From Schmidtea polychroa (lineage: Eukaryota): 64,000 bases of DNA. Below the pieces are notes generated by a model that was not told the origin of the DNA, searched no databases, and saw only the letters and a list, made by a program, of their open reading frames with translations. The stretch is from NCBI GenBank assembly GCA_044892525.1, contig CM097885.1, forward strand, positions 11,286,001 to 11,350,000. Direction: 5' to 3'. Positions 8,264 to 53,790 of the stretch are shown piece by piece. The position numbers were made by a program, and so were the translations under genes. The stretch's first letter is position 1. The number at the start of each line of letters is the position of its first letter.

Positions 8264-8774
8264 TTAATTTTTATTTAAAAATCGCGATAAAGCATACAAA
8301 ATAGCAACACCTGTTGCAAGTTTTATATAGTTTTTAAATTTCATTTTCTGTTCATCTATTTCCTTCGCATTTCTGGCGAGTTGATTCAGTACGCCCCATC
8401 CGCCATTGTCTTCAATCCATGGTTGAAACTTTGACTTGATTATCTAGAAAATAATTATTAATAAAATATAGATTATAAAAGTATTACTTCTTGAGACCAC
8501 TGATAATAATGTTCAGAGTCCCATAAACTTTTTTCGATTATGATCTTCATATAAGCGGTATTCGAGTCCACTTCATCTTATCGTCACATAGGCAGTTAAA
8601 AATCCTATGAAAATAGAATTTTTTCGTTTCGAGGCAATCGGAATTGAGCACATCCTCATAATCAATATGATTTCCTTCGATAATCTTTTCGGTCCGATCG
8701 ATCAGGAAACTGAGGCTTTCCATAATCTTCTTGTTAATAACTTGGCTTAAAAGATTTTCCATAAAATGAGACAT
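8264..8774 (-). pseudogene. Bcl-2-family gene in the TIR, 10-bp deletion in BH1
   Basis: Exon 2 encodes WIEDNGGW (BH2) and a hydrophobic tail. TAGTAGGGTT is missing relative to copy 3. Confidence 0.85.
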
Positions 8775-24092: not shown

Positions 24093-26111
24093 TGTAACTG
24101 TTGGCGTATGTGGGGAGGAAAGAAATTTTAGTACAAGGCATACAATCGTTTTCGTTCCGCTCAGGCCCTTCTCCCAGCATACCCGTATTGATTTTACTAA
24201 TATCCCTCATGTGTGCCCGTGGAGGTATTACACGTTGGTGATGCCCACATGGGTTGGAGTTGGTTAACAGGTGAGCCCCTACCTTAGGGCTACTATTAGC
24301 CCACTCACGGTTCGGGTTCTAAGGTGCCATAGAAGGTCTTACCCATACTCACATTTTAACCGGTTTGACCCTGGTCCGAGGGGACGACCTTCATCTATCG
24401 GCAGATATTCAATTTCATCATTTCATTTATACAAATTATATAGCAATTCATACCAATAACGCTCTTGACACAACAAAAATTATATTCAGGTAAGTAAAAT
24501 ACATTACACAACAGTTAATACACCGAAAAGATACTTAGAAAGCTGAATCAGGTAGTACGCTTCCTGAGAAGGCATCGGAGATTATCGCGATGTTTATTCA
24601 CAATGGAAAAGAATCGAGACAAGTCATTGGAACACTTCTCCCTCAGTAATCATTTCGTCGATGTCGACGGGTAATCGGCGATCTTCGAGGAATTTGATGC
24701 CGTCGGATGAAATTACCCGGAAAATTTCTTTCGATGGGATCGAATGGGTGGATGAGATTTCCTGGATCGTCGACTGTGCCGCGGACAACGAGGCTTCGAG
24801 CGCTTCGAGTGCGATCGTTAAGAGTGCATCCCATCATTTCTATCAGCAACACCGAAATCTCCAACAGTTGCAAAGATGATTAAACTTCAAAAGGAGAATG
24901 ATTCATGTTGAAATCGACATTTATATCTAGTTTTGACTTTGTGAGAATCCACATAGAATGGAAAGACCTTTTCGTGCGTAGCTTGTCTATCAGCATATTT
25001 AGAAGGAGAACTTGTTCGACCATAATTCGCGAGAAATTCCAACATTTTCCGTAATACACCGCATTTCCGAGATTTGTCCAATATTTCGCATCGAAAGGAC
25101 GTTAGCGAATAAACCCCTAATTTCATCTATCTGTAGGGTCCGAGTGGACGTGGAAGTCGAGGTTTGACAGGCCACTATCATTAATAACCCGTCGATCTAG
25201 ATAAAATGTAAACATTCTCCGATAATCAATACAAATACTCACCATAGTCTTGAGGAAAGCTGCTGTCGGCGAGTTTTGAGAGATTATCTTTCGGTTTTGT
25301 TCTGTTAGGAATTGGCTGCAGTCGACAGATAAGAAATTGTTGGGTTATCGAGTTGGTGATAAAATTTAATGTTACTCTGATTCCAAGCGTGTCTTTATAT
25401 AATTCACAAATAACACTTGACAACAGAAATCTTTATTGATAATCACAAATAAACTTTCACTTGACACTGACGATAAATTCAACACTCTACTTGGTGATTA
25501 TACAATGCTTATTACAACACTCGGTGAGGAATAGCACTTGTGTATAACACCGGATTAAAAGATCACAAATTACTGATTGGTTTCAAAACTGGGATTTTGA
25601 GCGGTTGTTTTCCTTGACTTTCTTTCAAACTTTATTCAAATAATCAATAACTTCTTTTCGTTTTGTTATTCAGCCAATCCTCCTCTTCAACTCTTCTCCA
25701 ATAATTATTTTCCACAATTATTTCCTTTACAATTACTTTGACAATCGTTTGTCCAACAAAGTTTCGTCCAACGTTTAATTTTCCTCAATAATTCTATTTC
25801 TCAAATCGTCTCTCAAATTGTATCTAAAATCGTCTTCCAAATCGTCTCTCAAATCGTTTCTCCCTTTGTTCCTTTTGTTTCCCTTTGGTTCTAATTTCAT
25901 GTTCACCAGTTTTCCTTTATATAATTTGCTTCTCTTGTGGCACTCCAGATAATCGAGTGTTTTTCCACTTTCCATCTCCTGCTTTTCCCGACTGTCCCAT
26001 TTTTATCTCTGACAGCTGTCTAGTTGTTTTTCCCTTTTTCCTTTCTTGTTTGGCCGCCTTCTCCCATCAATTCTATTATCACTCGCAAGCTGTCGAGATA
26101 AGGATATTGTT
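24093..26111 (-). repeat. Distal part of a long retrotransposon LTR (left boundary approximate)
   Basis: Continuous across the Polinton TSD with the PPT-adjacent LTR start at 41536. Candidate TG termini at 24093 and 24099. Confidence 0.5.
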
Positions 26112-26650
26112 AGTAGGGTATTGTGTGGACCCGGGAACAAAGACATATGACGTCATCGATGACGTCACAAAGACATATTACGTCATACCCCCCACCCCCC
26201 GGGGGGAGGGGGTATTTTTTTTTTTTTTTAATTTTTTTAAAAAAAAAATTTTTTTTTTAAATTTATATTACGTTGCGGTATTTTAAAATATATATTACGT
26301 TGCGGTATTTTAAAATTTATTATATTTTAATTATTAAATATATTACGTTGCGGTATTTTAAAAACTTATTGATAAAAGTTTAATAAAATAAAATTATTAT
26401 TACACACACACAATATAGTCTACCCGACAAAATATTCTGTTCCCCTATGGTCATACACACACACAATGTATAAAAATATTATTAGTGTCCACACACGCAA
26501 CAAGTTAGTGTTCTCATTGATATATTATTAATCTATATACTCCGAGTCTATCCGACAAAATATTCTGTCCCCCTATGGGTACTGCTCACAAGGGTACTGG
26601 TTACACTCAACAAGTCGCAAGGGTATTAATAAACAATGTAATAAAACATA

Positions 26651-26745
<95 letters not shown>
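26112..26745 (+). repeat. Left terminal inverted repeat of copy 2
   Basis: Reverse complement of 40693-41288. Contains a CRE palindrome, a C/G tract and three ATTACGTTGCGGTATTTTAAAA units (two in the right TIR). Confidence 0.95.
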
Positions 26746-26746
<1 letters not shown>

Positions 26747-26958
26747 ATTTCTATCACAAATCATGGTTAACAAAAAACATAGTCGAATATTATAAAATTA
26801 AGGTATTGTGTTAGCACACACTCGTTATAATAATTAGCAATATAGTTTTTATGGTGTATCAAATCAAAACCTTTCTTTTACATTTATAGTCTATCAACCA
26901 ATCAAAATCATATGGTATTAGTATAAATAAAAACATTATATTTTAAATTATTTTAGAA

Positions 26959-27487
26959 ATGTCGCAACCAAATTTTATGGAAAATGTTCTAAACGGAATT
27001 GTCACCGCGAATATAGTCGACAGCCTCAATTTCCTGATCAATCGAACCGAACAAATCATTGAAGGTGAACATATCGATTATCAGCAGATGATGGAGACGG
27101 AATCCCTGGAAACCAAGAAGTATTACTTCAATAGAATATTTCAGTGTCTTTTCGATGAAGACATGAAATGGACAAGGATAATTGTAGGATTCACCTACAT
27201 GAAGATAATCATTGCAAAAGGTCAACATGATTCAGAACATTATTATCATTGGTCTTTAGAAGTAAGATTTCTTTTATAATCTATATTTTAATAATATTCA
27301 TTTCTAGATAATCAAGTCCAAGTTTACCCCATGGATAGAAGCCAATGGCGGATGGGGTGTATTAAATAAACTGGCCTGCAATTTTAAAGAAACTGATGAA
27401 ATCAAAAGAAAAATGAAAAACTATATAAAACTTACAACTGGAGTTGTTATAATGTATATTTTCTGTAGATATATGAATAAAAATTAA
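26959..27487 (+). CDS. Bcl-2-family protein, 160 aa, spliced (26959-27261 and 27308-27487)
   Basis: BH1-like MKWTRIIVGFTY, BH2 PWIEANGGWG and a C-terminal hydrophobic anchor. A 46-nt GT-AG intron gives an intact frame. Confidence 0.88.
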
Positions 27488-27687
27488 TGTTTTTAATAGT
27501 ATATTTAAATGAAAATAATTCAATTTTAAAATTTATTAACACACTGGGTAAAGGTCATAAAGGTAACTAACAAAACTTTAACATATTATTATTATTATTA
27601 CAATGTATAAAAATTGTTCACAAAGTTACTGTTAAAAATAATCAAGACAATAAAATCAATACATTTATTAAATAATTTAAACACACA

Positions 27688-30600
27688 TCATCGAAAATAA
27701 TCATGTCCAAAATAATTATCATCTGCTGGATCATGGAAATCATCTGTATCATCTGCTGAGATAGCTTCCGTTGAATCTATAAATATATCGGTGTCACCGC
27801 CCCTATAATGGCCATATGCCAAACTTTGATTTTTATCCACCCAATTTCGTTTATCATCTCTACACGTCAAGGCTCTTTTATTATTTTTAATACTAAAAAG
27901 TTGGTGATTTTTTGACGTTATTCTAAACTGAGGGACTGTGTATATTTTATCATTTAAATAACAATCTAGATACGACTGATGTGTTAGTCCAGTATCTTTC
28001 ATACTTATCCCCTTAGCCTTCATACTTTCCTCATCACCCATCAAGCTGTAACATTTAGGTCTCAAGAACACCCAATCTTTATATAATAACCCTTTATTCT
28101 CGTCTTTGAATTTGCCAATGACAGAATCAAGGTTCCTACTATATAAAGGATGATTTGGGTCATAATTCGAAGTATCTAATAATTGATCTCTAATCATCGC
28201 AGGTAAAAGAATGTCAAGACTACAATGTTTAATTTCCAAGAAGAAGGAATCTGTGTCTCCAACAACGATATTAATTTCGCAGTTGAATTCGTCGCGATAT
28301 TTTTGCAACTCTTCATACTGCAGCTGGTACATCCTGAGTTTGGATAAATCAAGTACGGTTTGACCAATGTAACTAGGTCTATTCAAACACACTATGTCCT
28401 TCCTCAATAAAACCGAAATCAAGTCATCATCGATTTTCGTGGATTTACGAAAAGTCGGTTTCGAACAGAATGTTAATAATCTCTGTGAAGAATTACACAG
28501 ACGTAAATTAATACGTTTTTTAAGATTTTCAACAGTCTTGCCGTAAAGACTGTTGTTTAATAATTTATAAAAATTTTTATCGAGTTTATTTGTCGACGCT
28601 GCTCGTAACGCCGTATTTGTGTTAATATAATTTTTGAAAATTTTATCTTGTTTAAATTTAATTGCTCTATGTGTTTTTGATATTTTAACACCTAATTTAA
28701 TAAATATTTGTAGAAGCCTCCAATGAAGAACGTAGTTCCTCTTGGGGCTATGTGTAAGCAACAGCTTCTCTATTTTCGAACCCGGTACACACATCTTTTC
28801 AGCGGCAACGGGAAGATCGTCCAGTTTGTCGTGAATTGACGTCGGTATTTCTAAATCCACTTCTATGGTATAACCATAATCAAGCAGATCTAAATCTACC
28901 GTTGTGCATTCAACAATTAAATTATTTAATAAATTATCATCAGTAACCCATTCAAAGTCACTGCAAGGTAATGGTTGACTTAAAGCCCAACCGTATAAAT
29001 TATTTATATCTATGTAAAGCAAAGCGGTATCCGGGTCTGTTTTTACATAATGTTTATTTACAAAAGTTAGTCCGCCACGGATACCGCCCTCGAAAAAGTT
29101 ATACATCTCCATATCGGTGAGGAGCTCAATTGGAGAGTTTAAAGTTAATAAGGCTGAATTCCAAGACATACCTGGAATCCCTAAGAAATTTAATGGCTCT
29201 AGTCGGTTATGAGCAATGGACTTAGCTCTAAATTGCTGGAAAAAATCGGCTAAAAGGAAAACATCAAGTTTTAAATAAACCATCATGTAATCGAAAAGTG
29301 AAGTACATGAAGTTTCAACCCAAATTCGCTGAGCTGTTTCATATTCAGCAGGAGTCACATCTTTCCAAATAGGTGGTAACTGATGAGTGTTATGTAAAAC
29401 CTCTAATGAAGTTGCGACATCATAAGGAAAAATTCCCTTTGCAGTTATTATTGTACCCTGAAATTCTGATTCGGTCAAGGGTAAAGATGATAAAGTTTTG
29501 ACAGCATTATTTAAAGACTCGCTGACAAATTGATAAGAGTCTATAAATTTAACAGTTAATGAGTCAATCCTAGCAAAAAGACTAAGGAATTTCTCGCTGG
29601 TTAAAGGAATACAACTAATATTCCATGAATGATATTTTGAAAGGCCAAATTTCAAGATATGATGCAGATCATAACCCTTTAAATTATGAAATACTACAGG
29701 AAGGGTATGTCTAATTTGCCTCGACAGATTACAAGTTGTACAAGCGGCACCAAGATATAGACCGGTAAAATGATCATGGTCCCTAACTGGACTAACTAAA
29801 GGCTTATTACACAAATAACATGATGTGCTGTTTTCAAACATTAATTGTTGCTCATCTGTAATTATCATTTTCTTTTGATAATTTTTATAATAATAAGGAG
29901 TTACAATATATTTCCCTATCATTTCAATTTCAGTAAGAAATTGATCGACACAATCTAAACCGGTGAACGACTTATAAATTTTTACGCCTGTGAAATTATT
30001 AATAAAAAGCATACCGGCAGAAATAGGCAGATGACGTTGAAAGTAGCGAGTGTCTTTAGGTAAGATAGCCTCAAAGTCAGCGTAAATAACAAAGGGAGGA
30101 GTAACTGTTTTACTCCAATCAGTAAATTCTAAATATTTATTTTTAGGCAATGTGTACAAGGTAGTACCAAGCTGATTTTTATCGCAAAGACCCTTATGTC
30201 TATTAAAAGCGTCATCATTCCTAAAACCGTTTAAACATCTAGGGCACCACTGACTACAAATCCTAACAGGAGTGATTGAACTATTCCTACAATTAAGAAA
30301 TCTATTTAGGTCTGTGATTCCAAGATAATGATAATTATCATTCTTTTCGATTAATAATAAATTGATAGGTATGGCTCCTACTATCTTACTCCTATATATT
30401 ATATCAATAAATGGATGTTTCATAACTGCATCTTCATCGGAAATGTCAATCAAAGCCTTTTCGTTATAAGTAAGAACATTAATACTATAACCCGGATTTT
30501 GTTGTTCAAATTTACTTATATTTGATAGTTTCATCGGCATATCATTAGGATCAAATTTAATTTCAGAAAGATTGTAGGAATTAGGGCGATTTCTATATTG

Positions 30601-31490
30601 CCTATTTATACAGTCATATTTAATAATTGACAAGAAACTATACAAAAAGCAGAAGTGGTCATTATTAACTACATTAATGAGACAGCTTAAGTTTCTTAAA
30701 GATTTTGGGGTTTCAATAAAACTTCTACCACTTAATCGACTTATTTCAGCAAATTTAGTAAGAACAAAGCTTATGTATTCTATTTTATTGATAGTCCAAT
30801 TACTACCTTTCTCATTAATTCTAATTATTTTTTCATTTAAACGAGCAATACCTTCGTCAATGAATGTATCGCTCCAAACTCGGGCGGAATTCGAGATTAC
30901 AAAAGATTGTAACTCATCATCTTTTATAAATTCCACCTTTAGACAAAATTGAATTTTACATGATTTTAATTTATTTACATATAAATTTAATTTATTTATT
31001 AAAATTTCTGGTACAGAGACCGTTTTTAAATCTAAAGACGAAACGTCCATTTTTAATATAATATGATTATTATTTAAATCACTGGTGACATCTACGACAC
31101 CATAACCTATTTGATTAGTATTATTAATACGATTATTATAATAAATATTACTACTACTATTATTATTATTATTATTATTATCAATTTCCTCATCACTTAT
31201 GTTGATTATTTCATCATCATCACTTATTGTGATTACATCAATAACTTTAGATTTTTTACTTGGTATTGAATTTATTTTTTCATTATTTTTTCTTTTATTC
31301 ATATTAATTAGATTATTTATTTGTTCATTTAATTTATTTACTTGATCTTTTAGATTATTTATTTCGTTTATATCATTATTATTATTATTGGTGCTGTTAG
31401 TATTATTGTTGGTGATATTATTATTATTATTATTGTTGATATTATTATTATTATTATTGTTGTTGATATTATTATTATTGTTGTTGTTGA

Positions 31491-31536
<46 letters not shown>

Positions 31537-32321
31537 GTTAACAAACGATTCATATAAGCTATAGAAAAGAGACTTCTTAGAAGGTTTAAATTGTTGGAGA
31601 TGGAGTCTATGCTTATTATAAAATTCCTTATACGTTATAACTTCAATAACCTCACATTTAGGGCATAGGATGTAGGTGACACCGTTATATTTATGACTAT
31701 AATATCTTTCCATTATATCATCGCAGTCATTATGATATTGACTATTACAAAAGTTTTGGTATTTCAAACCTATGAAAATATTTTTATCATAAAATGTTTA
31801 AAAAATATTAAGATAATAATCATTTTTAAAGTTTAAGATATTTTTCGTAAGATATTATTCAAAATTATCTTTTAAATAGTATCTTATAAAAAATATTATT
31901 CAAAATTATCTTTTAAATAGTATCTTATAAAAAATATTATAAAATATATATAATTTAATTCGTTTTCATAAATAATTTAATTCATTTTCATAAATAATAT
32001 ATAAAAGTTATTAATTATAATGTTCAAAATCATCATAAATAAATAGGTAAATCTTCTTTTCATGAATAAATCTTCTTTTCAAAATCATCATAAATAAATA
32101 AGTAAATCTTCTTTTCATAAATTATCATAAATAAATAGGTAAATCTTCTTTTCATGAATAAATCTTCTTTTCAAAATCAACATAAATAAATAAGTAAATC
32201 TTCTTTTCATGAATAAATCTTCTTTTCATAAATCTTCCTTTCAAAATCATCATAAATAAATCTTCTTTTAAAATATCTTCTTTTCATGAAAAAATCTTCT
32301 TTTCATAAGTTTCTTCTTTTA

Positions 32322-32363
<42 letters not shown>

Positions 32364-32690
32364 ATATTTTAAAAAACTTAAAAACTTATAACAATAAATA
32401 AATACTTACATTTTCGTCCTTTCGAAAGAAATTTTCCAGCATCAGCAGCAGCAGAAGTATTTATTACATTTCCATCTAAAAGCATAATAAAAATAATAAT
32501 GATAATAAGAGTAAACTATTACCATTTATTCTATTCATGTCTACAGCTTGTCCGTCGATATTCATTTTAATTTGTTGATTAGTACCTAATAATCATATTA
32601 AAAATAATAAAATAATAAAATAATAAATTTACCATTAATTCCTCCAACGATCTTTCCGTCAACTCTTTGAATATTGTTGTTGTTGTTCAT
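27688..32690 (-). CDS. Protein-primed DNA polymerase B (exons 32690-32633, 32585-32523, 32475-32410, 31769-27688)
   Basis: Exonuclease YADFEA and FHNLKGYDLH; polymerase YIDINNLYG, KLLNNSLYGK and GDTDSF. Three phase-1 introns connect an upstream ATG in frame. Confidence 0.93.
31850..32320. repeat. Tandem AAATCTTCTTTTCA-type repeats in pPolB intron 3
   Basis: Many degenerate copies between 31850 and 32320. Confidence 0.8.
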
Positions 32691-33032
32691 GTTGCTAATA
32701 GATTTTTAAAAGTGATGAAAAAATGAAAGTGTAGACTATATAAGAGAGATATTACAGGTTTTATTAACCGACCAATGAAAATAGAGATAGGATAGGAAAA
32801 GACCCTACATGTTTGTTTATACAAACCATGACGAAATAATGACCTTTACATGTCTTTATTACTCAGTGCTTTGTTACTTTGCACTGTGCATGCACTGAAC
32901 ATGTAATAGTATTACATAATATTTTTAAACATAAAATTTTAAACATAAAATAATAAAATAATAAAATAATAAAACAAATAATAATATTTAACAAATAATT
33001 AAAATAGTCAACAAATAAAAATCATACATTTA

Positions 33033-33444
33033 TTAACCATCAAATTTTTTATACAACAACCATGCCAAACAGTGTTGACCACATGTTTGAGTCAATGGAT
33101 TTTGAAACATAGTTTTATTATATACAATAGGTTTCCCAATTGTTTGAAGTTTTGATATCAACAAAGCAGGATAATAGAAACCCATAGGATCGAATACGAA
33201 TATATTACCAGGTTTCACATATATAGCTATCCAATGTTCTCCACCAAGATGAGACGAATGAGTATTGATGATTATGGCTTGATTATTGCTCAAATAAGGA
33301 ATTTTATCAAGAGGAAAAACTCCTACAAATTCATTTCCTAATATTTGTTTTCCAATTCGATTAACCTGAACAGAACTACTTTAATAAAATTAAACAGTAT
33401 CAAAAAACTTACTCCATGACAACTTTTTGTGTTTCTGTATACAT
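33033..33444 (-). CDS. Adenain-like maturation protease, spliced (33444-33413 and 33378-33033)
   Basis: His, Asp, Gln and Cys catalytic motifs. The 34-nt intron is required for an open frame. Confidence 0.9.
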
Positions 33445-34668
33445 TTATACTAGCACGGTTCTATTTGCAGTAATTTGAACTTCATTTTCAAATACTCCAT
33501 ATATTATAACATGTACCGGTTCAGTAATAGCTTTTGCAAACTTAATATCCAGTCGTAAATTCCCGTTTTGTGGTAGTTGACTCTGATTTAAATCAAAATC
33601 AGGGGCTAAAACAAATGTAAAAAATGGATATTTGCTTTTAAATTCTTCTAGAGTTATTCCACAATTCAAGTTTTTATCTAAGTAACCCAGATTTCTAACA
33701 ATACTCTGCATATATGTCGCACAGTAATTATCGCTTTCGAAATCTTGAGTATATGTTTCTCTATAATCAGTATTTTTCGACAAAGTCAAAGAAGTAACAC
33801 CAAAATTTTTGAAAATTGAGCTGGAAGCAGTATAAGATCCATTATATTGCGTTTCATTTTGAAATGTTACCAGAATAAAATTAGGCATTCTTCTGTCACC
33901 AAATATTTGTTCTTTATAGAATGATGAAGCACCTTTAGCAATAGCAAATTGTACAATTTCCTTTGTTTTTAAAGGATAAATTGCATGTTTTGAATTAAGA
34001 CCCAATTGATGACCAGCTAATACTGACGGGTCTACTCGAACTCTTCTCACCAATAATTTTGCATCAACTAATTGGCATATTGGTGCACCAGTTGCACTAG
34101 TAAGAGATAATGCAGAATCAGACCTTTTCAATCTAATGTGTACATTAACTCCTGGTAGCAAATATTTCGGTTGATCCATAAAATCGAGTTGTAATGATGA
34201 GCACATAGTGAATGATTTTGAGCCTTTAACCCACTTTTTTCTTTCATCATCTGTTGCTGCATAACCCATAGGTGTAAGACAGGTATTTTTAGTATCAGAA
34301 TTGTAATTTAAAATAGTTTCTATCAAAGCCTTGTGAATGAATGTATTATTTCCGCCCTCAATCTTAATATTATTAAATCCCAAGACTGCATCTTTAAACA
34401 GAGTATGAAACATGAAATTGTTCGGTATTACATCTGCATTGGCATCCAAAACTTTTCTATCTTTATCTACAACCTTGATCTGAACAGTCAATAAAGTATC
34501 ATTCAAATCTAAATATTCAGTTTGCGAACCATTAATATAAAACTCGATATCATTTCTACTATCAGTAATTGAATTCATAGGAAAAACTTCCTCAAAGGCC
34601 CCAAATTCGATTACAGCTTGAGGCGATGGTCTATCAAATATACATAATTCAGATTTACCACAAATCAT
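33445..34668 (-). CDS. Major capsid protein (double jelly-roll, PY)
   Basis: KSEL.IF..P..Q..IE......P.......IEF.I.G....YLDL.DT.L.V is the Polinton MCP N-terminus. Intact 407 aa. Confidence 0.92.
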   Translation of the reverse strand: MICGKSELCIFDRPSPQAVIEFGAFEEVFPMNSITDSRNDIEFYINGSQTEYLDLNDTLLTVQIKVVDKDRKVLDANADVIPNNFMFHTLFKDAVLGFNNIKIEGGNNTFIHKALIETILNYNSDTKNTCLTPMGYAATDDERKKWVKGSKSFTMCSSLQLDFMDQPKYLLPGVNVHIRLKRSDSALSLTSATGAPICQLVDAKLLVRRVRVDPSVLAGHQLGLNSKHAIYPLKTKEIVQFAIAKGASSFYKEQIFGDRRMPNFILVTFQNETQYNGSYTASSSIFKNFGVTSLTLSKNTDYRETYTQDFESDNYCATYMQSIVRNLGYLDKNLNCGITLEEFKSKYPFFTFVLAPDFDLNQSQLPQNGNLRLDIKFAKAITEPVHVIIYGVFENEVQITANRTVLV

Positions 34669-35027
34669 TTTGCAAATATAGTTCCATGTCCTTTCATTCG
34701 TTTGTTTATACGCGATATTCCATGTCCTTTACGTTTTGGAGCTGGGGCTGGGGGCGTATCTTTTTGAAACATACCAGCAACTCCAGGTAGAACCTTCCCT
34801 AACTCAGCTAAAGCATTTGTTTTTATGGATGGTAATATTTTCTGTTCATTCATAATAACATCTTTTGCAGTTTTCATGCCAAAACTACCAATACGTTTAA
34901 GAATAGGAAGTGCAAATCTCCCTATTGTTTTTAACCAACCTGATCCGTACTGTTTACCAATAAAATATGGTAATTCACCGCCAGATTGGCTATCACTATA
35001 CATACTAATAATATCGGAATTAGCCAT
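34665..35027 (-). CDS. Putative core / membrane-active protein
   Basis: QSGG, QYGSG and MKGHG motifs plus an amphipathic helix. Confidence 0.72.
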   Translation of the reverse strand: MANSDIISMYSDSQSGGELPYFIGKQYGSGWLKTIGRFALPILKRIGSFGMKTAKDVIMNEQKILPSIKTNALAELGKVLPGVAGMFQKDTPPAPAPKRKGHGISRINKRMKGHGTIFAK

Positions 35028-36087
35028 CTACTTTACGAAAATGTAGTGTCAAATGAGTTTTTGAGTCTTTTGGAAAGTTTATAAGTTTTCCACTATCGTC
35101 ACGAATATTTATTTCTATATTGTTTATACATGAACTTGCTATTGGTAAATACATGGGATTATCTATATTTATATTGACAACTTCATCATGTTCATATTTT
35201 CCAATCCATACCGATTTCAAAAGAGGAACACTGGAATCACCAACAATTATAGGCTCAATAATATTAGTATATATGAACATTTGTTGATGATGTTCAAGTA
35301 TTCTTGGTTTACGTATACCAGCCGATTTTTCCCGATATTGCTGCTTCTCTAATCCAAGTGTATTTGTCAAATTTTTATCAAATGTAACTTCGCAAATATC
35401 ATCATTCAAACTGAAGGTAAACATCAAATCTTTCACAATGTCCAAACTTTTAAATATGTGTGAACAATTGTACTTTAAATATTTAAGTAACACATCAAGT
35501 TTATCAATATATAATTCGTCAGCAAAGGTGAATGATTCTTCAACTTCATTATTATACGACACTGATATTTTGATTTCTTCTCTCATTACACTGTTTGCTT
35601 CAAATAGATTAAAGCGTAATAAATATTCTGTTTCCATAACTTCATTTTTCAACTTATTGCAACCCAATCGTTTGGCATCTTCAATATATTCGAATGTTAT
35701 TGTAAATGGTTTAAAATCACAACTGATATTTAATCCATCCTTGTAAAACATAGAGCAGTGCTGATCTAATAGTTGATTTGGAATATGATATGTTTTATCA
35801 TAATTACTGATAATAAAGATACCGCTACATGTTTTCATAGCATTCCTTTTGAAATCAATCTTACATTGACTATAAAATGGGAATGTATTGTACACGAATG
35901 TAAAATCTTGCAGTGCAACTTCCCAGTCCCCATTTAAAGAAATCGGATTCTGGAGATTGACCATGAATTTACTGGCTTGATTATCTGGATGAATAAGCGG
36001 GCAACTATTGCTTGGTAAAATAGTATAAAAATTCACTTTACTAGATCCTTTTCTGATATCCATGATGGGTTTTGATAACCATGCCAT
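35020..36087 (-). CDS. Minor capsid protein (penton, PX)
   Basis: FYTILPSNS and GDWEVAL motifs; intact ORF. Confidence 0.88.
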   Translation of the reverse strand: MAWLSKPIMDIRKGSSKVNFYTILPSNSCPLIHPDNQASKFMVNLQNPISLNGDWEVALQDFTFVYNTFPFYSQCKIDFKRNAMKTCSGIFIISNYDKTYHIPNQLLDQHCSMFYKDGLNISCDFKPFTITFEYIEDAKRLGCNKLKNEVMETEYLLRFNLFEANSVMREEIKISVSYNNEVEESFTFADELYIDKLDVLLKYLKYNCSHIFKSLDIVKDLMFTFSLNDDICEVTFDKNLTNTLGLEKQQYREKSAGIRKPRILEHHQQMFIYTNIIEPIIVGDSSVPLLKSVWIGKYEHDEVVNINIDNPMYLPIASSCINNIEINIRDDSGKLINFPKDSKTHLTLHFRKVDG

Positions 36088-36662
36088 TTGACATAGAATT
36101 GTTTATCCTTGCCGACCTTTTTAGTTTTCAATATCTTTTGAATTCTAAATACTTTTGGGGGAGGAATAACTTGTAATTCTTGCTCATAAAACTTTCCTTG
36201 TACAATATTGTTATCATAATCACTGATGACATACATTACAGGATTCTGACTAGTATTTATTTTTGAAATTACAAAGACTTCATCACTCCAATTTGTATCG
36301 AAATTTTTAATAAATGGTGATGCACTAATTTTACTAATTCTAACATGGTCACCGACTTTATATTTAGGTTTTGCAATTTTTACAGATTTCTTAGAATAGA
36401 TTGTTTTTGATGTAATATCAACCGGTCTCAATCCATTAAGTCCTCGATGTGATGAATGATTATAACTTGTTATTATTTTCGGTAAAGCATTTACCCATTT
36501 TTTATTACCTTGATGCACGAACAATTTCTTTAATCTATCTCTCAATGTTCGATTAAATCTTTCAACATGGGCAGCTTTGTATTGAGAATGTACCGAGTAG
36601 TGATTTATTTTCAGTTTATCGAGGATTTGCTTGACTTTACTGTTGTAGAATTCTTTACCTAA

Positions 36663-36739
<77 letters not shown>

Positions 36740-37127
36740 CTAAATCTGTTTGCAAGTTATTAGGATGTCCATCTTTAAATAAATCATTAACAGCTTTAGA
36801 CATTTCATCTGCAGATTTTGCCTTGACGGGTATTGCTCGGGCAAACCGACTGAATACATCAATACATGTTAAAATATATTTATACCCATTGTTAATTTTC
36901 GAATAAGGTATCATCTCCATCAAATCCATTTGCCATAAATCATTTATTCCATATGTTTTATATACTCTTGTTGGGAATCGTTTCTGCATTGGTTTGTTCA
37001 AACTGTACGCAAGCTGGTCTGATAACAACTTCTGGGTTTCCTTTTTCGAATTCGGAACTCTTTTGTTTAATTTTGCCACTCCACCGAAACCGGCTTCGTC
37101 TTCTGGGTTCGTCCAAATCTTCTCCAT
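36033..37127 (-). CDS. Retroviral-like integrase with chromodomain (intron 36659-36739)
   Basis: DDE residues in LWQMDL, QTDLG|KEF and VERFNRTL. C-terminal FYVKWHGY..SWI chromodomain. Confidence 0.93.
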
Positions 37128-37185
37128 TACAACAAGAAGATTTAATATTAAATTTAATGTCTGGTAATGAAGGATTAGCACCCAT
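36958..37185 (-). CDS. Small MGxxxS ORF overlapping the integrase
   Basis: 75 aa, conserved across both subfamilies. Confidence 0.5.
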   Translation of the reverse strand: MGANPSLPDIKFNIKSSCCNGEDLDEPRRRSRFRWSGKIKQKSSEFEKGNPEVVIRPACVQFEQTNAETIPNKSI

Positions 37186-37188
37186 TGT

Positions 37189-37683
37189 TTATGATCGACT
37201 TCCTATTATTCCACCTAATAATGATATTGCTAAAGGTATCAATGCACCGATAAATCCCCCTTGTTGTTTATATATAATTTTTCTCATTTGTTGACGATTT
37301 TTATTATTTACTAATGATAGCAAAGGTTTCCTATGTTTACTCAATAATTGCTTTTTAGATTTACTGATTTTAATCTTACCTTTGACTACTTTAAGTATAA
37401 TATCGAGTAAATCATCGACAACATAATTTGGAAAAGATTGCAAAATACTGTTTCTTTTCATACTGGGTGCTTTTAACAATGTATTGAAAAACGGGAAACT
37501 CCGATGATTTTTAACAACTTTTACTTTCTTAGTGGTTTTACTTTTAGTTTTAGGTTTAGGATTTTTCGAAATGAGATTCATTGCAGGAAAATTTTCTGTA
37601 ATAAGTTCTTTAGATGGAGTATAACTAGTTGTTGGTGGAACTTTTGGTTGTTTTTTACTCGATATCCTTGTTTTTGAAAACAT
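37189..37683 (-). CDS. Basic virion core protein with QQGG|F site
   Basis: Homologous to 4735-5259. Confidence 0.72.
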   Translation of the reverse strand: MFSKTRISSKKQPKVPPTTSYTPSKELITENFPAMNLISKNPKPKTKSKTTKKVKVVKNHRSFPFFNTLLKAPSMKRNSILQSFPNYVVDDLLDIILKVVKGKIKISKSKKQLLSKHRKPLLSLVNNKNRQQMRKIIYKQQGGFIGALIPLAISLLGGIIGSRS

Positions 37684-37696
37684 GATTTATGTGTTT

Positions 37697-38335
37697 TCAA
37701 ATTTGTTTTAAACTTTGTTTATATACCATGGCGCCTTTTGGGTTGAAAATATCTGTTTTTACCCGTATATCATCAGGACATTGTTGTGTGAAATCGAGAA
37801 ATATATACCCATGAGGTATTTTCGTAGCATCTTGAAATGCACTGATAAGAAAATTACGGTTATTAGGGTATGCTTGTCGTCCAAGAAAATCGATGACAGT
37901 TGCATCTCTAGGATTCTTGAAAATAACTAGATATTGTACATTTAAATTACGTGTTCGATGTGCACCACCTTGATGAAATAGATTTTGTGTTATGAAAATA
38001 ACTGTTACACCAACATGTCTGCTGATTTTTGTGAATAAATTATTAAAATCCTTTTCTTTATTGGCTTCTTGATACAAATCATCGATAATGATGACATCAT
38101 CTTTTTTCAAACGACTTGACCAGTTTTTATCAAAACCCTTTACTATTTTCATGTTTTTCAATTGACAGAAACTTGATTGAGTCAATCCATGTTCTTCATC
38201 GGCGCCCCTATGCCAATAAATATTGTTGAATTTTGTTTTGAACAAATTAGATTTTAGTAATTTACAAACAAATAATGTTTTTCCACTACCACTCGGACCA
38301 ACGATTTGGTATACTGCATCATTTCGTAATTCCAT
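37697..38335 (-). CDS. Packaging ATPase
   Basis: Walker A and B motifs; intact 212 aa. Confidence 0.93.
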   Translation of the reverse strand: MELRNDAVYQIVGPSGSGKTLFVCKLLKSNLFKTKFNNIYWHRGADEEHGLTQSSFCQLKNMKIVKGFDKNWSSRLKKDDVIIIDDLYQEANKEKDFNNLFTKISRHVGVTVIFITQNLFHQGGAHRTRNLNVQYLVIFKNPRDATVIDFLGRQAYPNNRNFLISAFQDATKIPHGYIFLDFTQQCPDDIRVKTDIFNPKGAMVYKQSLKQI

Positions 38336-38439
38336 TTTTTAAATTTAAACTATATAATTATTGTTTATATTGATAATTTAAATGAACTCCTTTTTAAAAT
38401 AACTATATATAACAGAGTTTTTATAATTATTTCATTAAA

Positions 38440-38904
38440 ATGCTTTCAAATATAAATTACAGGGCAAAAGCTGATGTATCGAAAATGGTATTTCCAATGG
38501 GGAAACCACAACAACTTATCAATAGAAGTAAAAAATATCCAATAATATATTTCAAAACTGGTAAATGTAGAATTATGGGGTGTAAGGAAATAATCAAAGC
38601 TAGTGAATATAATGTTTATGATTTAGAAATACAATCGATAACCGTAACTTCCGATATAGATTTTTCTTGTAATTTAAATAATTTCGCTAAATTAATACCA
38701 TGCTTTTACGAACCAGAATTATTTCCAGCTTTGAGATATATAAAATATAACCCTATGTGTGTAAATATATTCGCTAGCGGTAAGATAGTAATTCTTGGAA
38801 TAAAAAATATTGATTACAAATGTATAGTTGATAATATCATATCTGAAATTAAATCAATAATTGAAGGAAAAGAATTTTTAGATTTTTTATTATCACTTAA
38901 TTAA
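38440..38904 (+). CDS. TATA-binding protein-like protein
   Basis: IIYFKTGKCRIMGCK, IQSITVTSD, YEPELFPAL and VNIFASGKIVILGIK. Confidence 0.86.
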   Translation: MLSNINYRAKADVSKMVFPMGKPQQLINRSKKYPIIYFKTGKCRIMGCKEIIKASEYNVYDLEIQSITVTSDIDFSCNLNNFAKLIPCFYEPELFPALRYIKYNPMCVNIFASGKIVILGIKNIDYKCIVDNIISEIKSIIEGKEFLDFLLSLN

Positions 38905-39025
38905 TTATTTATCATTTCAAATTCAATGCAATTAAAATGCATGATTCTGATTGGTCAAAATCTAATTGGCTGATGATTATTTATAACAAAATGTTTTCGG
39001 TTTAGTTATCATTTATTCAACAAAA

Positions 39026-39437
39026 ATGTACAACATACAAAGTTCCGCAATCACCTCAATGAAAGAGCATGCAAATTATGGTAATTTCAAATTTTTATTG
39101 TTACATTAATATATATATATTTTTTACAGATGAATATCAATCAATTATCCTGCAAAGATTATGCTTCTATTATCCAGAATTAAATGAAATTCTACAAGAT
39201 AGAGATCCATCTATCATTCCGGATTTGGTATACAACCAAACTCGAATCTGGATATTCGATATAATAAACACCTTTCTATGGGATATCAAGATAGGAAGGG
39301 GGATGAAAGAAATGAAAGCAGAGGCTCCTTGCATTTTCGGATGTAGCTGTTGCAATTTCCGTTATCAACAATATATTGAATGGTGTTTGGTGAAGACTCT
39401 GAGAAATCATCACTCGAGTCAGATTGTATCAAAATAA
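39026..39437 (+). CDS. Accessory protein with CxxGCxCC motif (intron 39081-39129)
   Basis: The spliced frame is open and the intron position is shared by all three copies. Confidence 0.68.
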
Positions 39438-39594
39438 ATTTTTTTTTTTTTTTTTTTTTTATGTTGAATTGTTTTGTTTTTGTAAATCGAAATAATAGAA
39501 ATAGAAATAATAATAATAGAAATAATATAAGTAATAATAGAAATATTAGAAATAATAATAATAAAAAACAATATTTATAATAAAAACATTAATG

Positions 39595-39700
39595 CAACAT
39601 TAATGCAAATGACATGCAATTTAAACAAAGACATGTAATTTAAACAAAGACATACATCAATCTGATTGGTTGATAAACAATAGTCATAGGTATAAAAACC
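39595..39700 (+). promoter_or_regulatory. Promoter module: octamer ATGCAAAT, AACAAAG, CCAAT box, TATAAAA
   Basis: Motifs lie upstream of the ATG at 39732. The octamer block recurs at 40213 and in copies 1 and 3. Confidence 0.6.
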
Positions 39701-39731
39701 CTGTACCATTTCATTTTAATCATTATTTACG

Positions 39732-40151
39732 ATGACAAAGAAAATTTCAAGCACTGAAAAGCCAAAAGTTGTTCCAGAACTTGTACAACCTGTTCAAATG
39801 TTCCACAACTATAAAATGTATTTTTTAAAAGAAGAAATCAATATAAAATTGGTGTCACCGATCAAGCTAATTCCAACTAAATTTCAATTCTTATCCGGCA
39901 CGCTTTCAATGTTAGATGTTAAATCTATTGATGAGGTTTTCAAACGGTTGAATACGAATCTATCTTGTAATCAACATGCCTGGTTCAACAACAGATATGC
40001 AAGATTTTATGATTCATTTGATGAAATCGGTTTCAAAGAAAACGAAAATTGGTATATAACAATTGCAATCCAAGGATATAAAGTTGATAATAATGATGTG
40101 TATTCTCCAATTTGGAAAATTATGTCTGCTAGACTTTCACAACTATTTTAA
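39732..40151 (+). CDS. Accessory protein, possible OB-fold ssDNA-binding protein
   Basis: Conserved 136-139 aa ORF with an aromatic, beta-rich C-terminus (WYITIAIQGYKV..YSPIWKI). Confidence 0.6.
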   Translation: MTKKISSTEKPKVVPELVQPVQMFHNYKMYFLKEEINIKLVSPIKLIPTKFQFLSGTLSMLDVKSIDEVFKRLNTNLSCNQHAWFNNRYARFYDSFDEIGFKENENWYITIAIQGYKVDNNDVYSPIWKIMSARLSQLF

Positions 40152-40284
40152 TGTTATATTTAATAAATGTATTAGTCATATTTGTTTTTTCTCTTTATTA
40201 ATTGCAACATTAATGCAAATGACATGCAAATTTAACAAAGAAAATCTATAAACAAACTTATAATATAGTTTTAAAGTGTTATTA

Positions 40285-40619
40285 ATGACTACAGAAAAAG
40301 GTTAACATGATTAATTAAATACCGAATTATTTATTATTTAGAATTATTAATCAACTTTTTGTTGGAAAAGTTAGCAGAAATAGCTGGTGTAAAAATTGAG
40401 GATATATTATCTATTACAAATGCCTTAAATATCGGCTGGGTAGCTGAGAGTCAAGATTCAGGATTTGACAATCATGAAGAAACTCAAGAAATTGATGACG
40501 AAATCTATGAACCTATAGAGGAACCTAAAGATAATATTACGAATGATTGTATTGATCATGTCGTTGAAAATATAATGAAATGTGGAGATGACGATTGCGA
40601 ATGTGTTAATAAATTTTAA
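40285..40619 (+). CDS. Small acidic accessory protein (intron 40301-40341)
   Basis: Spliced MTTEKE|LLINFLL frame; DSGF motif, acidic tract and CGDDDCEC tail. Confidence 0.65.
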
Positions 40620-40691
40620 AATTGAATTATTTTCATTTAAATATACTATTAAAAACAATAACATTAATTTTTATTCATATATCTACAGAAA

Positions 40692-40692
<1 letters not shown>

Positions 40693-40755
<63 letters not shown>

Positions 40756-41288
40756 TATGTTTTATTACATTGTTTATTAATACCCTTGCGAGTTGTTGAG
40801 CGTGACCAGTACCCTTGTGAGCAGTACCCATAGGGGGACAGAATATTTTGTCGGATAGACTCGGAGTATATAGATTAATAATATATCAATGAGAACACTA
40901 ACTTGTTGCGTGTGTGGACACTAATAATATTTTTATACATTGTGTGTGTATGACCATAGGGGAACAGAATATTTTGTCGGGTAGACTATATTGTGTGTGT
41001 GTAATAATAAATTTATTTTATTAAACTTTTATCAATAAGTTTTTAAAATACCGCAACGTAATATATATTTTAAAATACCGCAACGTAATATAAATTAAAA
41101 AAAAAATTTTTTTTTAAAAAAATTTAAAAAAAAAAAAAATTTTAAAAAAAAATTTTAAAAAAAAATTTAAAAAAAAAAAAAAAAAACCCCCCCTCCCCCC
41201 GGGGGTGGGGGGTATGACGTAATATGTCTTTGTGACGTCATCGATGACGTCATATGTCTTTGTTCCCGGGTCCACACAATACCCTACT
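40693..41288 (-). repeat. Right terminal inverted repeat of copy 2
   Basis: Reverse complement of 26112-26745. Confidence 0.95.
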
Positions 41289-41550
41289 ATTGTTGTTTTC
41301 CTTTTTTCCCTGATTTCAAAATTCTTTTTTCTTTTTTGTACTAATTAATTAGTACTGATCTTCATTTTTATTTTCCTGTTTGATAACTTTTATTTCCTTT
41401 CTCTTTCTCATTTTTGATTTCTTTTCACTTCCGTTTTCTTTTCTGAGTCCCTATAGATCGTCCCGTTTGTCATGGCGATCTTCCCCAGGTAATTTTATTT
41501 ATTTCTTTATGAATTATTATTTAGGTATCCTCAACATATCTCCCCCTTTA
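41289..41550 (-). repeat. Start of a 3' LTR (TG at 41536) with its polypurine tract
   Basis: The minus strand reads TTCGAGGACGAAAT..AAAGGGGGAGA-TA-TGTTGAGG, a typical Gypsy PPT/LTR junction. Confidence 0.7.
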
Positions 41551-42695: not shown

Positions 42696-43375
42696 TAAAT
42701 TGGCATTACTTATTTAATTATTTTAATATTATAAATAACCATAAATCAACTAATTTAATGCAATTTTTTGTTGTTAGAATAAATATTTTTCATTTCATAT
42801 CAAATTCATGTCAAATTTTCATGTCAAATTATTTGATCTTTTGATTAAAATATAGTTTGAATAAATATTTTTCATTTCATTTCAAATTCATGTCAAATTT
42901 TCATGTCAAATTTTCATGTCAAATTATTTGATTAAAATATAATTATTAGTTGAGTGCCTTCAATATTTTAATTGCACAATTCCTCTAAGAGGAAAAAAAA
43001 TTTGTCATTGTCTAGCACTTTCGTGCCTTTACTTTTTTTTTACTTATTTGCCGCTATCTGGACACATGTTTTTTTATTACGAGATTTTTATTAAAGTGGC
43101 ACTTATGTGCCTAATTTTTATGTTCGTTGCGCAGGCTTAAATGGAGAATTAGAGATTGGTTTGCATTTGTTTTCTGATTGGCTAGCATGCAGAATTTTAA
43201 CATTCTGATTGGCTACCTTGAGGAATTCCAACATTCGTTAGTACGAAAAATGATAAATTATAAAATGAACAACATTTTTAAAATTGTTCATTAATTTGAT
43301 AAAAAAATATTTTTAATTTGAATGATCACCGTAACGAATGCTCTAATTATTATTATGTTAATTTGACAAATTCCC

Positions 43376-43648
43376 GTGACTATTTCCTTACAAATCGATC
43401 GATGGAGCCACGCGGAAAAGGTTAATAAATTGTTAAGAAAAGCCATATCATGTTACAATATCCAAGGATTTGGAATATCGGTGGTGAAAAGGGATAAAAT
43501 TATTTCTCAGAAAATTTTTTTTGGTTATCCTGTTATTAGAAATAAAGTGCCTTATTTGGTAAATGAAACAAATATGTTAATAGCATTAATTAGTAAAAGT
43601 TCAAAGCGATGCTCATTAGTTATTTTTCAATTGGAAACAGGTTATTAG
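43376..43648 (+). pseudogene. Possible fragment of a beta-lactamase-family (serine hydrolase) gene
   Basis: LLRKAISCYNIQGFGISVVKRDKII..GY..V....IALISK resembles the family N-terminus up to the SxxK region. CCAAT boxes lie upstream. Confidence 0.4.
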
Positions 43649-43679
43649 TTTGAAATTCATCAGTATTTTTATATGGTTG

Positions 43680-43793
<114 letters not shown>

Positions 43794-44493
43794 TTAATAA
43801 TAATGATCATACTGATAATAATAACAGTAGTAGTAATAAAGGTAGCAAAAATTCTATAATAATACAATAATTACAATGATTCTAATGATGATGATAATAA
43901 TAATAATTAATCAATAATGAAAATAATAATAATTAATTGAAATAATAACTATGTAATAATGCCTCTTCCATAATTACAATGATTTTAATGATGATGATAA
44001 TAATAATTAATCAATAATGACAATAATAATAATTAATTGAAATAATAATTATGTAATAATGCCTCTTCCTCTCTATATAGGGTTTATTATTTATGTCGTT
44101 CTTTTCCAAATTACCTAGCACGCTGGTTACGCCATGCTGCAGGCGGCGAGGTAATTTTGCCATGAAGTCTTCAGATCCCGAAGTTCGTGATCTGGGAACT
44201 TCAAGGCCTTTTTATTACTTCCGAATTACATATATTTATTTATTCATTTTTATTTATTTGAGTAGCTCCCGTAGGATTCTTACTACAACTGTATTAGTAT
44301 TGAAAAAAAAATTTTTTTTTTACATTATACAATATTATATTATTAAATTTTCAACTTATAATTATGATTTAATTAATTTTTTTGTTGCCTTTGCTATTTT
44401 ATTATTTTATTATTTATTTGATAAAAGATTTTTAGGGTACAAAAAAAATAAAGTAATTACGAATAATAAATTTTATTTATTTATTACAATTAT

Positions 44494-44859
44494 TCATCTT
44501 TTGTCGAGTAACTTTGTAATTTTTATCTTTTCATCTTCTCTTTGATAAGTGGCTAAGATTTTTGAGCTTCCATTCTTCTCCGTTGATGATAATTGTATTT
44601 CCCACGAATTTTCCGTAGTTACCGTTTGGGTTTCCATATCTTTGAGTCTTCGTTTTGCCATTCTCTTTATACGAAGCTCAATTTTCCCCGCCATTTTTAA
44701 TTCCTCTTCCATTGTTATCGTTACTTTATATCTCTTGATGGTTTTCATTGATTCGATGGAATGAAGATTTATTTCCATCTCTTGGATTTCCACAGCTTTT
44801 TCCTTTTGTGGTTTTTCCGGGATTTTGAGTTTACTATATTCCCTTTTTTGATTCATCAT
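44494..44859 (-). CDS. Unknown 121-aa ORF at the 3' end of the retroelement
   Basis: Its start overlaps the exonuclease stop (TAATG); same K/E-rich composition. Confidence 0.45.
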   Translation of the reverse strand: MMNQKREYSKLKIPEKPQKEKAVEIQEMEINLHSIESMKTIKRYKVTITMEEELKMAGKIELRIKRMAKRRLKDMETQTVTTENSWEIQLSSTEKNGSSKILATYQREDEKIKITKLLDKR

Positions 44860-46016
44860 TAGTTGGCGAGTTCTAACTCTTGTAGGGAGTGAGATATCCG
44901 CGTTGGCACTTTTATATCATCTTCCCAATCGCTTTCCAATGCCAAATAAACTCGTCTCACTGCATCCGTATCTTCTCTTGCCGAGTGCGTTCCCTTTTGC
45001 ATTGATATTTGGCATATTTCTTGAGCAATTATCGACAATTTGTACCATTGCCCATTCTTTGTGATTTTCCTTTTCGTTAGAGCTTGGACTGCTGCTAGAT
45101 CCCGAATTCCCCATAAATCATTTGGGTTAACTCCACTATACCTTAATTCATTTTGTAGATCATGTACTACCAATATTTTTCGTGCTGTTAGTTCCTGAAT
45201 TTTCCTTTGGCTCTCATATTGGTCTTCTTGGTTCCTAGACATTTTTTCAGTAATGCCGTGAACCTGTGTAACATAGTTTTTTATTTTTTCTCTCGGAGTT
45301 ATCAAAGCATTATAGATTATTTTCCCGGTATATTCGATGAGGCATACCGCTAGTGGGATCATTCTATTGTCCTCACTTACTCCATATTCGGCATCCATGA
45401 ATATTATATTTTTTCGGATTTCTTCAGTGGTTAAATATTTTCTCAGGAATGACTTTCGGTGTTTCAACATTTCCTCAGTAATTGGGAGCAAGGTATTTTC
45501 TTCTTCTATTGAGATGATTCTTTCTACCGCGTTACTTGTGGGCATTTTACTGCGGCATTCTAATACTAACCACGCGGTTCCATTCGTTGCTCGCATACGT
45601 TTATGCCATGTTTCTTTATCAATTTTCCATGATGAATTGTTTGGCATTGTTCAGGTTATGGTTCCTTCATTGTTTATGATTTCCACTATTCCTTTAAATA
45701 CACGGATCTCCCAATTTTCATCATTTTTCCTCACTAATAATTCGGCTATTTTCATTCTTGATCTCCATTCGATCTCCATTAGACATATCCTCATTTTCTC
45801 ATTGCCTGTTCTTGCCCAATTTGGGATTCTCAGATTTTCTTCGATTACATATGTCTTCTCTATTCGGCTTCTCTTTTCTCTAAGATACTGTGAATATAAT
45901 TTCGCTGGTCTGCTGATTTTCTCCATTTGATATTCTTTGTTTTTCTTCGTTTTCTTCTTTAAAAATTTTGTCAAATCGCTGAAAACAACCATACTCTTAT
46001 ATCCCAACTCTCCCAT
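44859..46016 (-). pseudogene. DEDDh 3'-5' exonuclease (REX4/ISG20-like) with N-terminal extension; one in-frame stop
   Basis: IFMDAEYG, VTQVHGIT, ILVVHDLQNE, IRDLA and HSAREDT motifs. ORF 45651-46016 is in the same frame. Confidence 0.82.
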
Positions 46017-46184
46017 CAGTAGTACAATCGTTTAACCAATCAAATTACAGGAATGATAATTTAATTTTAGATCACGAATAATCACAATACAAGATCACTA
46101 TTAGTCATTTTTATGTAATTATAAAAGGTATGAAAGAAAGAAATACTCTACGATATTAATAGCATGCAACGAAATCATATCTTA

Positions 46185-47360: not shown

Positions 47361-47439
47361 ATATCCCAATGGCGTAGGGTTTTTTTGAAATTTTTGTTGA
47401 ATAATTTTTTCATCATTAAGTTTTTTTTGTTTTGATCGT

Positions 47440-50242: not shown

Positions 50243-50269
50243 TTTCGTTTTTGGTCTTAATGCTATTTC

Positions 50270-53762: not shown

Positions 53763-53790
53763 CTCATTTTTAACAATAATCTCTCCAGTT

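Follow-up and report, generated by a model that had tools for sequence, protein, structure and literature searches.

The window, meaning the whole 64,000-nucleotide stretch of Schmidtea polychroa DNA analysed here, contains several copies of a mobile element that carries a spliced Bcl-2-like gene. The best preserved of these genes lies in copy 2, whose features are as follows:

26112 to 41288, no strand assigned: Polinton copy 2, 15,177 bp, with AG...CT ends and a 6-bp target-site duplication (26106–26111, 41289–41294)
26112 to 26714, plus strand: left terminal repeat of copy 2, ~600 bp, 90% match to the right repeat
26898 to 26902 and 26922 to 26929, plus strand: CCAAT and TATA-like motifs 5' of the Bcl-2-like gene, with putative promoter function
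26959 to 27261, plus strand: exon 1 of the Bcl-2-like gene, 101 codons, with the ATG at 26959 and BH1-like WTR
27262 to 27307, plus strand: intron of the Bcl-2-like gene, 46 nt, phase 0, GT-AG, at a site absent from the host gene
27308 to 27487, plus strand: exon 2 of the Bcl-2-like gene, 59 codons plus stop (27485–27487), with BH2 and a tail anchor-like segment
27476 to 27481, plus strand: AATAAA, within exon 2
27688 to 31713, minus strand: putative family B DNA polymerase reading frame with an endonuclease VII-like insert, 1341 aa; Pfam gives PF02945 only
33033 to 33380, minus strand: main exon of an adenovirus-type cysteine protease, PF00770 at 26.8 bits (above cut-off), without an in-frame ATG
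33445 to 34668, minus strand: major capsid protein, double jelly roll-like (Atlas 0.98; PF21738 clusters; recognition under the tool threshold)
34665 to 36087, minus strand: two reading frames labelled core protein and penton, without a family match
36033 to 37127, minus strand: retroviral-type integrase with chromodomain, containing an (ATT)n insert with GT-AG ends at 36659–36739
37697 to 38335, minus strand: A32-type packaging ATPase (PF04665)
38440 to 38904, plus strand: short TBP homologue (PF00352, E 2e-14)
39069 to 39437, plus strand: orf122, with a likely upstream intron
39732 to 40151, plus strand: orf139, conserved in element families A, B and C, without a family match
40602 to 41288, minus strand: right terminal repeat of copy 2, in which 40602–40696 is the remnant of a second Bcl-2 gene copy

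Terminal inverted repeats, AG...CT ends and a 6-bp target-site duplication were found together with an integrase, a packaging ATPase, a maturation protease and a double jelly roll capsid, and by its sequence copy 2 is a Polinton/Maverick carrying a full predicted virion module. The frame at 27688–31713 is taken to be a polymerase from its family B-like motifs, and the core protein and penton labels at 34665–36087 are assumed from Polinton gene order. A PHROGs search of the element proteins returned endonuclease VII and nothing further, and an Atlas search gave no usable match for orf139. The protease (33033–33445, minus strand) was absent from the list of open reading frames; a short leader follows the capsid stop, a GT-AG stretch of ~34 nt in the region is suggestive of splicing, and the gene likely has a short upstream intron.

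The (ATT)n insert of the integrase occupies one fixed site with AG/GT flanks on both sides. Of 13 matches, 12 have an insert of 81–120 nt, out of frame in one case, and the remaining one has 882 nt (loci L032, L035, L079, L082, L129, L137, L139, L141, L146 and L148); the insert is absent from the integrase of element family B. From its sequence, it resembles an intron that arose from a microsatellite together with an AGGT duplication. Inside the integrase region of copy 3 lies a 752-aa reading frame (61405–63663, minus strand) with no clear Pfam family.

Structure and splicing of the Bcl-2-like gene

Joining 26959–27261 to 27308–27487 yields a product of 160 aa, and translation places KWTRI in exon 1 and WIEANGGW with a hydrophobic tail in exon 2. 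The original prediction had been of exactly such a gene, missed by the ORF track and interrupted by an intron of 44–46 nt, and it was borne out in its coordinates, motifs and product length, the copy 2 intron being 46 nt. Among the 21 GT-AG pairs tried, products of 155–160 aa arose only from donor 27262 with acceptor 27307, 27316 or 27322; the alignment to the host protein and the junction contigs favour 27307, and the other two acceptors were rejected.

The predicted 27261/27308 junction was seen in contigs from two of four sequencing runs (X1 and X2, from one study whose RNA status is a guess), which skip exactly 27262–27307; unspliced contigs stand beside them in X1. The junction was absent from the contigs of X3, which cross the intron unspliced, and from those of X7, which barely cover the gene, and no listed run containing the stretch is recorded as RNA. 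Of 1965 exon-2 candidates 150 were scored, and these (open frames of 59–62 aa) included no intronless retro-copy that could be the source of the junction. Contig depth is higher on the Bcl-2 gene than on the polymerase in X2 and the opposite in X3, but it cannot rank the genes. In X3, the summed contig depth on the polymerase at 27736–30900 is hundreds to thousands of times that on the Bcl-2 gene.

The intron is 46 nt long in 29 of the 30 best-matching loci (in the remaining one it was not located), 42–51 nt in all eight subfamily loci and 38–47 nt in 11 of 12 more distant loci, with a GT start in 10 of those. Four lines of evidence back the intron: the junction contigs, the host alignment, the variation in length with the frame kept, and purifying selection.

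Homology to host bcl2-1 and origin of the gene

The two exons align ungapped and contiguously to Bcl2-1 of Schmidtea mediterranea (ACW83059.1, 'Bcl2-like protein', UniRef C9WPR4), exon 1 to residues 43–126 (E 4e-10) and exon 2 to residues 127–182 (E 2e-9), with 23–25% identity. This end-to-end homology to a named family member bears out the predicted Bcl-2-family identity, and since the exons align in this way, the exon boundary falls between the adjacent host residues 126 and 127. The element protein differs from Bcl2-1 in its shorter N-terminus and shorter helix 1–2 linker, and is encoded by hundreds of mobile element copies, whereas bcl2-1 is a single host locus. The host-type locus L050, the orthologue of bcl2-1 in this genome, scored 100% (the next best of 150 scored reached at most 57%), its product is 89% identical to ACW83059.1, and no Polinton gene was found within 10 kb of it.

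For all 11 element proteins the bcl2-1 lineage was the best or near-tied best partner, and window exon 1 scores 41.6 bits against this lineage versus 26.2 bits against the next host paralogue. The proposed phylogeny against host paralogues joined the element genes to the bcl2-1 lineage at 70/78 (four of 25 rows, long or partial, were left out); the alternative grouping with retrotransposon Bcl-2 domains is not rejected (p-AU 0.29). The sequence comparisons make the survival gene bcl2-1 the closest host relative of the element gene. A supplement to PMC4993586 gives accession ACW83059.1 as the top match of bcl2-1, and PMC4993586 and PMC6970515 describe systemic cell death and total lysis upon bcl2-1 knockdown.

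A genome search with PF00452 yields host-type genes, retrotransposon polyproteins and element genes. Exon 1 alone falls under the cut-off of 31.4 bits (20.3 bits, E 8e-4), close subfamily copies read across an in-frame intron reach 32–34.5 bits, the sister-family protein reaches 32.7 bits and the host proteins 43–46 bits. Scans of viral and metagenome contigs gave 134 and 117 pattern matches, respectively, of which none was confirmed, and a mollusc protein of 1016 aa (P0010), from a representative search with four matches, was dropped as a spurious repeat match. Elsewhere in the genome (G000), seven near-identical host-type Bcl-2 genes (L039–L045) form a local cluster at C4:89.95–90.83 Mb; in these, NWGR is present and there is no intron after GGW.

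In the alignment, WTR and W-x-x-x-N-G-G-W of the element protein stand opposite the host WSR and BH2. The predicted replacement of the NWGR glycine by threonine holds in that the glycine is missing (WTR), but it does not mark a viral rewiring: neither the host nor the element has the BH1 glycine, and WSR or WSK stands at this point in other element lineages. Since host Bcl2-1 reads WSR, the absence of the glycine is inherited. The element protein retains the BH1 arginine, the BH2 tryptophan pair and a tail similar to that of the host; its C-terminal 17-residue segment has a mean hydropathy of 1.29 (host 1.39) with basic residues after it, and we predict a Bcl-2-fold protein anchored by its tail. 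A Gly-Asp pair is a feature of the BH3 motif; helix 2 is without it in both the element and the host proteins.

Comparison of models with known structures found the expected Bcl-2 fold in an intronless sister protein from family B, whereas the exon-1 model of the gene itself (pLDDT 67) matched only at E 0.7–3, although all 41 of the listed Foldseek rows were Bcl-2 proteins. The family B protein, modelled with the window exons as alignment rows, reached pLDDT 81 and had 77 Foldseek matches below E 0.001 (Foldseek E 5e-5; Z 16.1 to Bcl-xL, with rmsd 2.1 over 120), and in its fold search 36 Bcl-2-fold chains ranked above the first unrelated chain (Z 5.6). For the 160-aa protein we infer a Bcl-2 fold by homology. 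A wide fold search with the exon-1 model was uninformative, its best Z of 5.9 being to an unrelated repeat protein. In a PDB search with the exon-1 profile, the top rows were designed PPR repeats, rejected as an artefact of summed repeats, and Bak leads the Bcl-2 proteins with a weak match (E 7e-4).

The host orthologue has a single phase-0 intron of 2.97 kb straight after the BH2 GGW. A GT directly follows GGW in five of eight host-like loci versus none of five element genes, and the host intron arrangement is therefore taken to be the old one. The proposed check of intron position placed the element intron 16 codons upstream of the host site. Families A and C have this upstream intron in common with three further lineages, and together they form one group (82/75); the further intron-sharing lineages are 31–45% identical to window exon 1. 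Family B carries an intronless version of 144 aa that shares 46% identity with the host exon. In families A, B and C alike the gene lies beside orf139 and has the same CCAAT context ahead of its ATG, a context that the 110 bases preceding the host ATG do not show. It is likely that an ancestral Polinton captured the gene from the host. Because the element copy is without the host intron, capture may well have gone through spliced RNA, and on the simplest reading the upstream intron would have been gained inside the element. As to one versus two captures, 103 of 500 bootstrap trees unite the element genes in a single clade (p-AU 0.49).

Copies, terminal repeats and selection

The window holds three further copies of the gene:

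435 to about 653, plus strand: fourth Bcl-2-like copy, truncated, with the first 72 codons followed by a microsatellite
8264 to 8774, minus strand: Bcl-2-like gene of copy 1, ATG at 8774, 44-nt intron, exon 1 frameshifted
55954 to 56465, plus strand: Bcl-2-like gene of copy 3, 44-nt intron, a premature stop in both exons

As had been predicted, the gene occurs in all three element copies and is intact in copy 2, those of copies 1 and 3 being broken; the truncated fourth copy had gone unlisted. Across the genome (781 Mb, four large contigs), all of the 40 scored DNA matches, the best 40 of 1314 candidates, are 99–100% identical, and the exon 2 protein is identical in at least 141 copies (141 of 150 scored, from 1965 candidates). 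A strict test for 101 + 59 codons was passed in 51 of the 58 best-match loci with a located junction, a set that is biased to good copies and includes duplicates. The Polinton with the Bcl-2-like gene is abundant in the Schmidtea polychroa genome.

The gene had also been described as carried in the terminal repeat, which is true of some family members but not of copy 2, where it stands at one end only. The matching stretch of the two copy 2 ends is only ~600 bp long; with its start 848 bp in from the left end, the gene falls outside the present repeat. At the right end, 40602–40696 holds the final 90 bp of the gene fused to a (TAT)n tract. The same right-end deletion is found in two other target-site-flanked elements, and one target-site-flanked element has the gene at the opposite end only. 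In an element with the whole gene set at C4:16.01 Mb, the gene is wholly inside both 1.46-kb terminal repeats. The gene is present at both ends in eight of 13 other elements examined, but these eight were picked for inverted pairs and seven of them are long palindromes. In family C it is just inside the 1.4-kb repeat and not within it, and in family B it is internal. Seven elements (C2:188.21, C1:197.28, C1:224.75, C1:224.24, C2:124.53, C3:98.53 and C3:13.63 Mb) have mirror-image arms of 3.2–8.3 kb, one end being replaced by an inverted copy of the other, which hints at fold-back or end-conversion during replication.

Purifying selection acts on both exons in their frames. Between subfamilies dN/dS is 0.10–0.23 (10 of 12 pairs were computable, the other two having saturated dS), with Fisher p ≤ 8e-9 in 12/12 pairs; for comparison, the capsid gives 0.115 and the ATPase 0.085. 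Among three near-identical copies (three pairs, few changes) dN/dS is 0.8–1.5. The near-neutral change among close copies and the many broken copies place the selection on the replicating phase, suggesting that the gene matters during element replication and drifts after insertion.

Proposed role and relation to known systems

We think it fairly probable that the gene encodes a pro-survival protein, likely captured from bcl2-1, which restrains Bak/Bax-type death while the element copies itself. A CCAAT/TATA promoter of its own, close to the end of the element, would drive transcription of the gene, and the host would splice the transcript; the product would be anchored in a membrane by its C-terminal segment and, as a Bcl-2-fold protein, would bind pro-death BH3 helices. 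Cell death of the Bak/Bax type, set off by the replication of linear DNA and its integration, would thereby be restrained, and the benefit would go to the element, not the host. Each of these functional steps is drawn from the donor phenotype and the retained motifs. Set against a pro-survival role are the 23–25% identity to Bcl2-1, which leaves room for a change of function, the tree values for the bcl2-1 grouping (only 70/78, with p-AU 0.29 for the alternative), the origin of the junction in one study of guessed RNA status with unspliced contigs in X1, and the sub-threshold Pfam score and poor model of exon 1.

Some poxvirus and herpesvirus Bcl-2-fold proteins act in non-apoptotic roles, and the element protein could use the same fold for another job, for instance to dampen innate signalling or autophagy. 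Its low identity to the donor, together with strong conservation within the element lineages, would fit such a job, as would the short helix 1–2 linker, a trait of compact viral homologues; we nevertheless hold it to be unlikely, given that the BH1 arginine, BH2 and tail are retained and that the sister-protein fold search gave Z 15–16 for Bcl-xL-type chains versus Z 7–9 for vaccinia A46, A52, N1 and B14. It also seems rather improbable that the gene serves the host through extra Bcl2-1-like activity, or serves nobody as a neutral passenger in the terminal repeat. The very high copy number, with the many identical exon-2 copies, the spread of three elements despite loss of the gene copy at one end and the existence of junction-bearing contigs are in favour of such a view. 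However, neutral carriage is excluded by the dN/dS values and Fisher tests between subfamilies, and the near-neutral close copies and many broken copies indicate selection during replication and not after insertion, which speaks against host benefit. A decoy or pro-death factor directed against host Bcl2-1, for example for late cell killing and particle release, would suit an element that keeps its capsid, protease and packaging ATPase, and Bak does lead the Bcl-2 proteins among the weak exon-1 profile matches. We rate this as highly improbable: helix 2 is without the BH3 Gly-Asp, the donor bcl2-1 is pro-survival, and more than 100 intact copies of a killer gene with junction contigs would presumably be costly to the host.

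A Bcl-2 gene in a Polinton is not new, since adintoviruses are described in part of Starrett et al. (2021, PMC8502044) as carrying Bcl2 and IAP homologues. The likeness is one of gene content, namely a Bcl-2 homologue on a Polinton-type element with polymerase, integrase, capsid and ATPase. The parts of PMC8502044 considered give the adintovirus Bcl2 one sentence and map labels, with no donor, intron or selection data seen, and the examined part of its supplement holds no flatworm terms. Anti-apoptotic homologues in mammal-associated adintoviruses are described in part of Buck et al. (PMC11071296), PMC10748475 makes no mention of Bcl or apoptosis, and no published planarian Polinton Bcl-2 was found in a literature search that covered mainly open-access papers and not Repbase. 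Cargo of this kind was thus already known; the present analysis adds the tracing of its donor, the exchange of introns and the pattern of selection.

Planarian Burro LTR retrotransposons are mobile elements with BCL2 and BIR domains (part of PMC6431247, citing Grohme et al. 2018). They resemble the present element as planarian mobile elements with a Bcl-2 domain, but the Burro domain lies within a long polyprotein beside a fusion glycoprotein. It has no pairwise similarity to element exon 1 (E 14), and the Burro and element groups are joined in 0 of 500 bootstrap trees, although the AU test does not reject joining them. The window itself holds a Burro-like LTR retrotransposon (43000–55000, minus strand) with its own Bcl-2 domain (reading frame 53139–53762), a Monjiviricetes-type fusion glycoprotein, RT-RNase H and an exonuclease, which is present in many copies genome-wide.

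Adenovirus E1B-19K and the vBcl-2 proteins of herpesviruses and poxviruses are examples of a compact Bcl-2 fold encoded in linear dsDNA virus genomes. Several vBcl-2 proteins are among the fold matches of the family B protein, and by analogy the same logic, with death blocked during replication, likely applies here. The element gene differs from them in that it is spliced, is integrated in the host genome as many copies and can be traced to a single host paralogue. Intact vertebrate Mavericks, in which no introns were found (part of PMC8097293), represent a reported tendency to intronless genes that is not a defining Polinton/Maverick feature and is not followed here, the Bcl-2 gene being spliced and the integrase and protease containing intron-like inserts.

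The gene had further been taken to suggest a virus phase. It is in itself no proof of one, since the selection pattern fits any replicating phase and the LTR retrotransposon in the window carries a Bcl-2 domain too; the conserved capsid module (dN/dS 0.115) would be consistent with a virion phase. The phase so protected may be particle infection or multiplication within stem cells. Planarian Polintons are reported to be piRNA-repressed and up-regulated during differentiation (part of PMC8532177), which would provide an intracellular setting for the same survival need. We tentatively raise, as possible but doubtful, a broader hypothesis: planarian Polintons would be functional viruses of the nucleus that acquired bcl2-1 a single time, gave it a new intron and kept it in at least five lineages as an equivalent of E1B-19K, with Burro acquiring its domain independently and apoptosis being a main obstacle that planarian stem cells pose to mobile elements.

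In practical terms, many Bcl-2 matches in planarian genomes and transcriptomes are mobile-element genes and not host paralogues. The intron exchange would represent a clean, polarised example of a virus-like element gaining an intron, its relatives in vertebrates being reported to have none. In the parts of the literature considered, the anti-apoptotic cargo of adintoviruses was previously just a genome-map label; a donor with a lethal knockdown phenotype, a capture direction marked by introns and selection in the replicating phase may now carry it to experiment in a model animal. If the broader hypothesis is true, planarians would offer an RNAi-tractable animal for testing the function of Polinton cargo and an infectious phase of animal Polintons.
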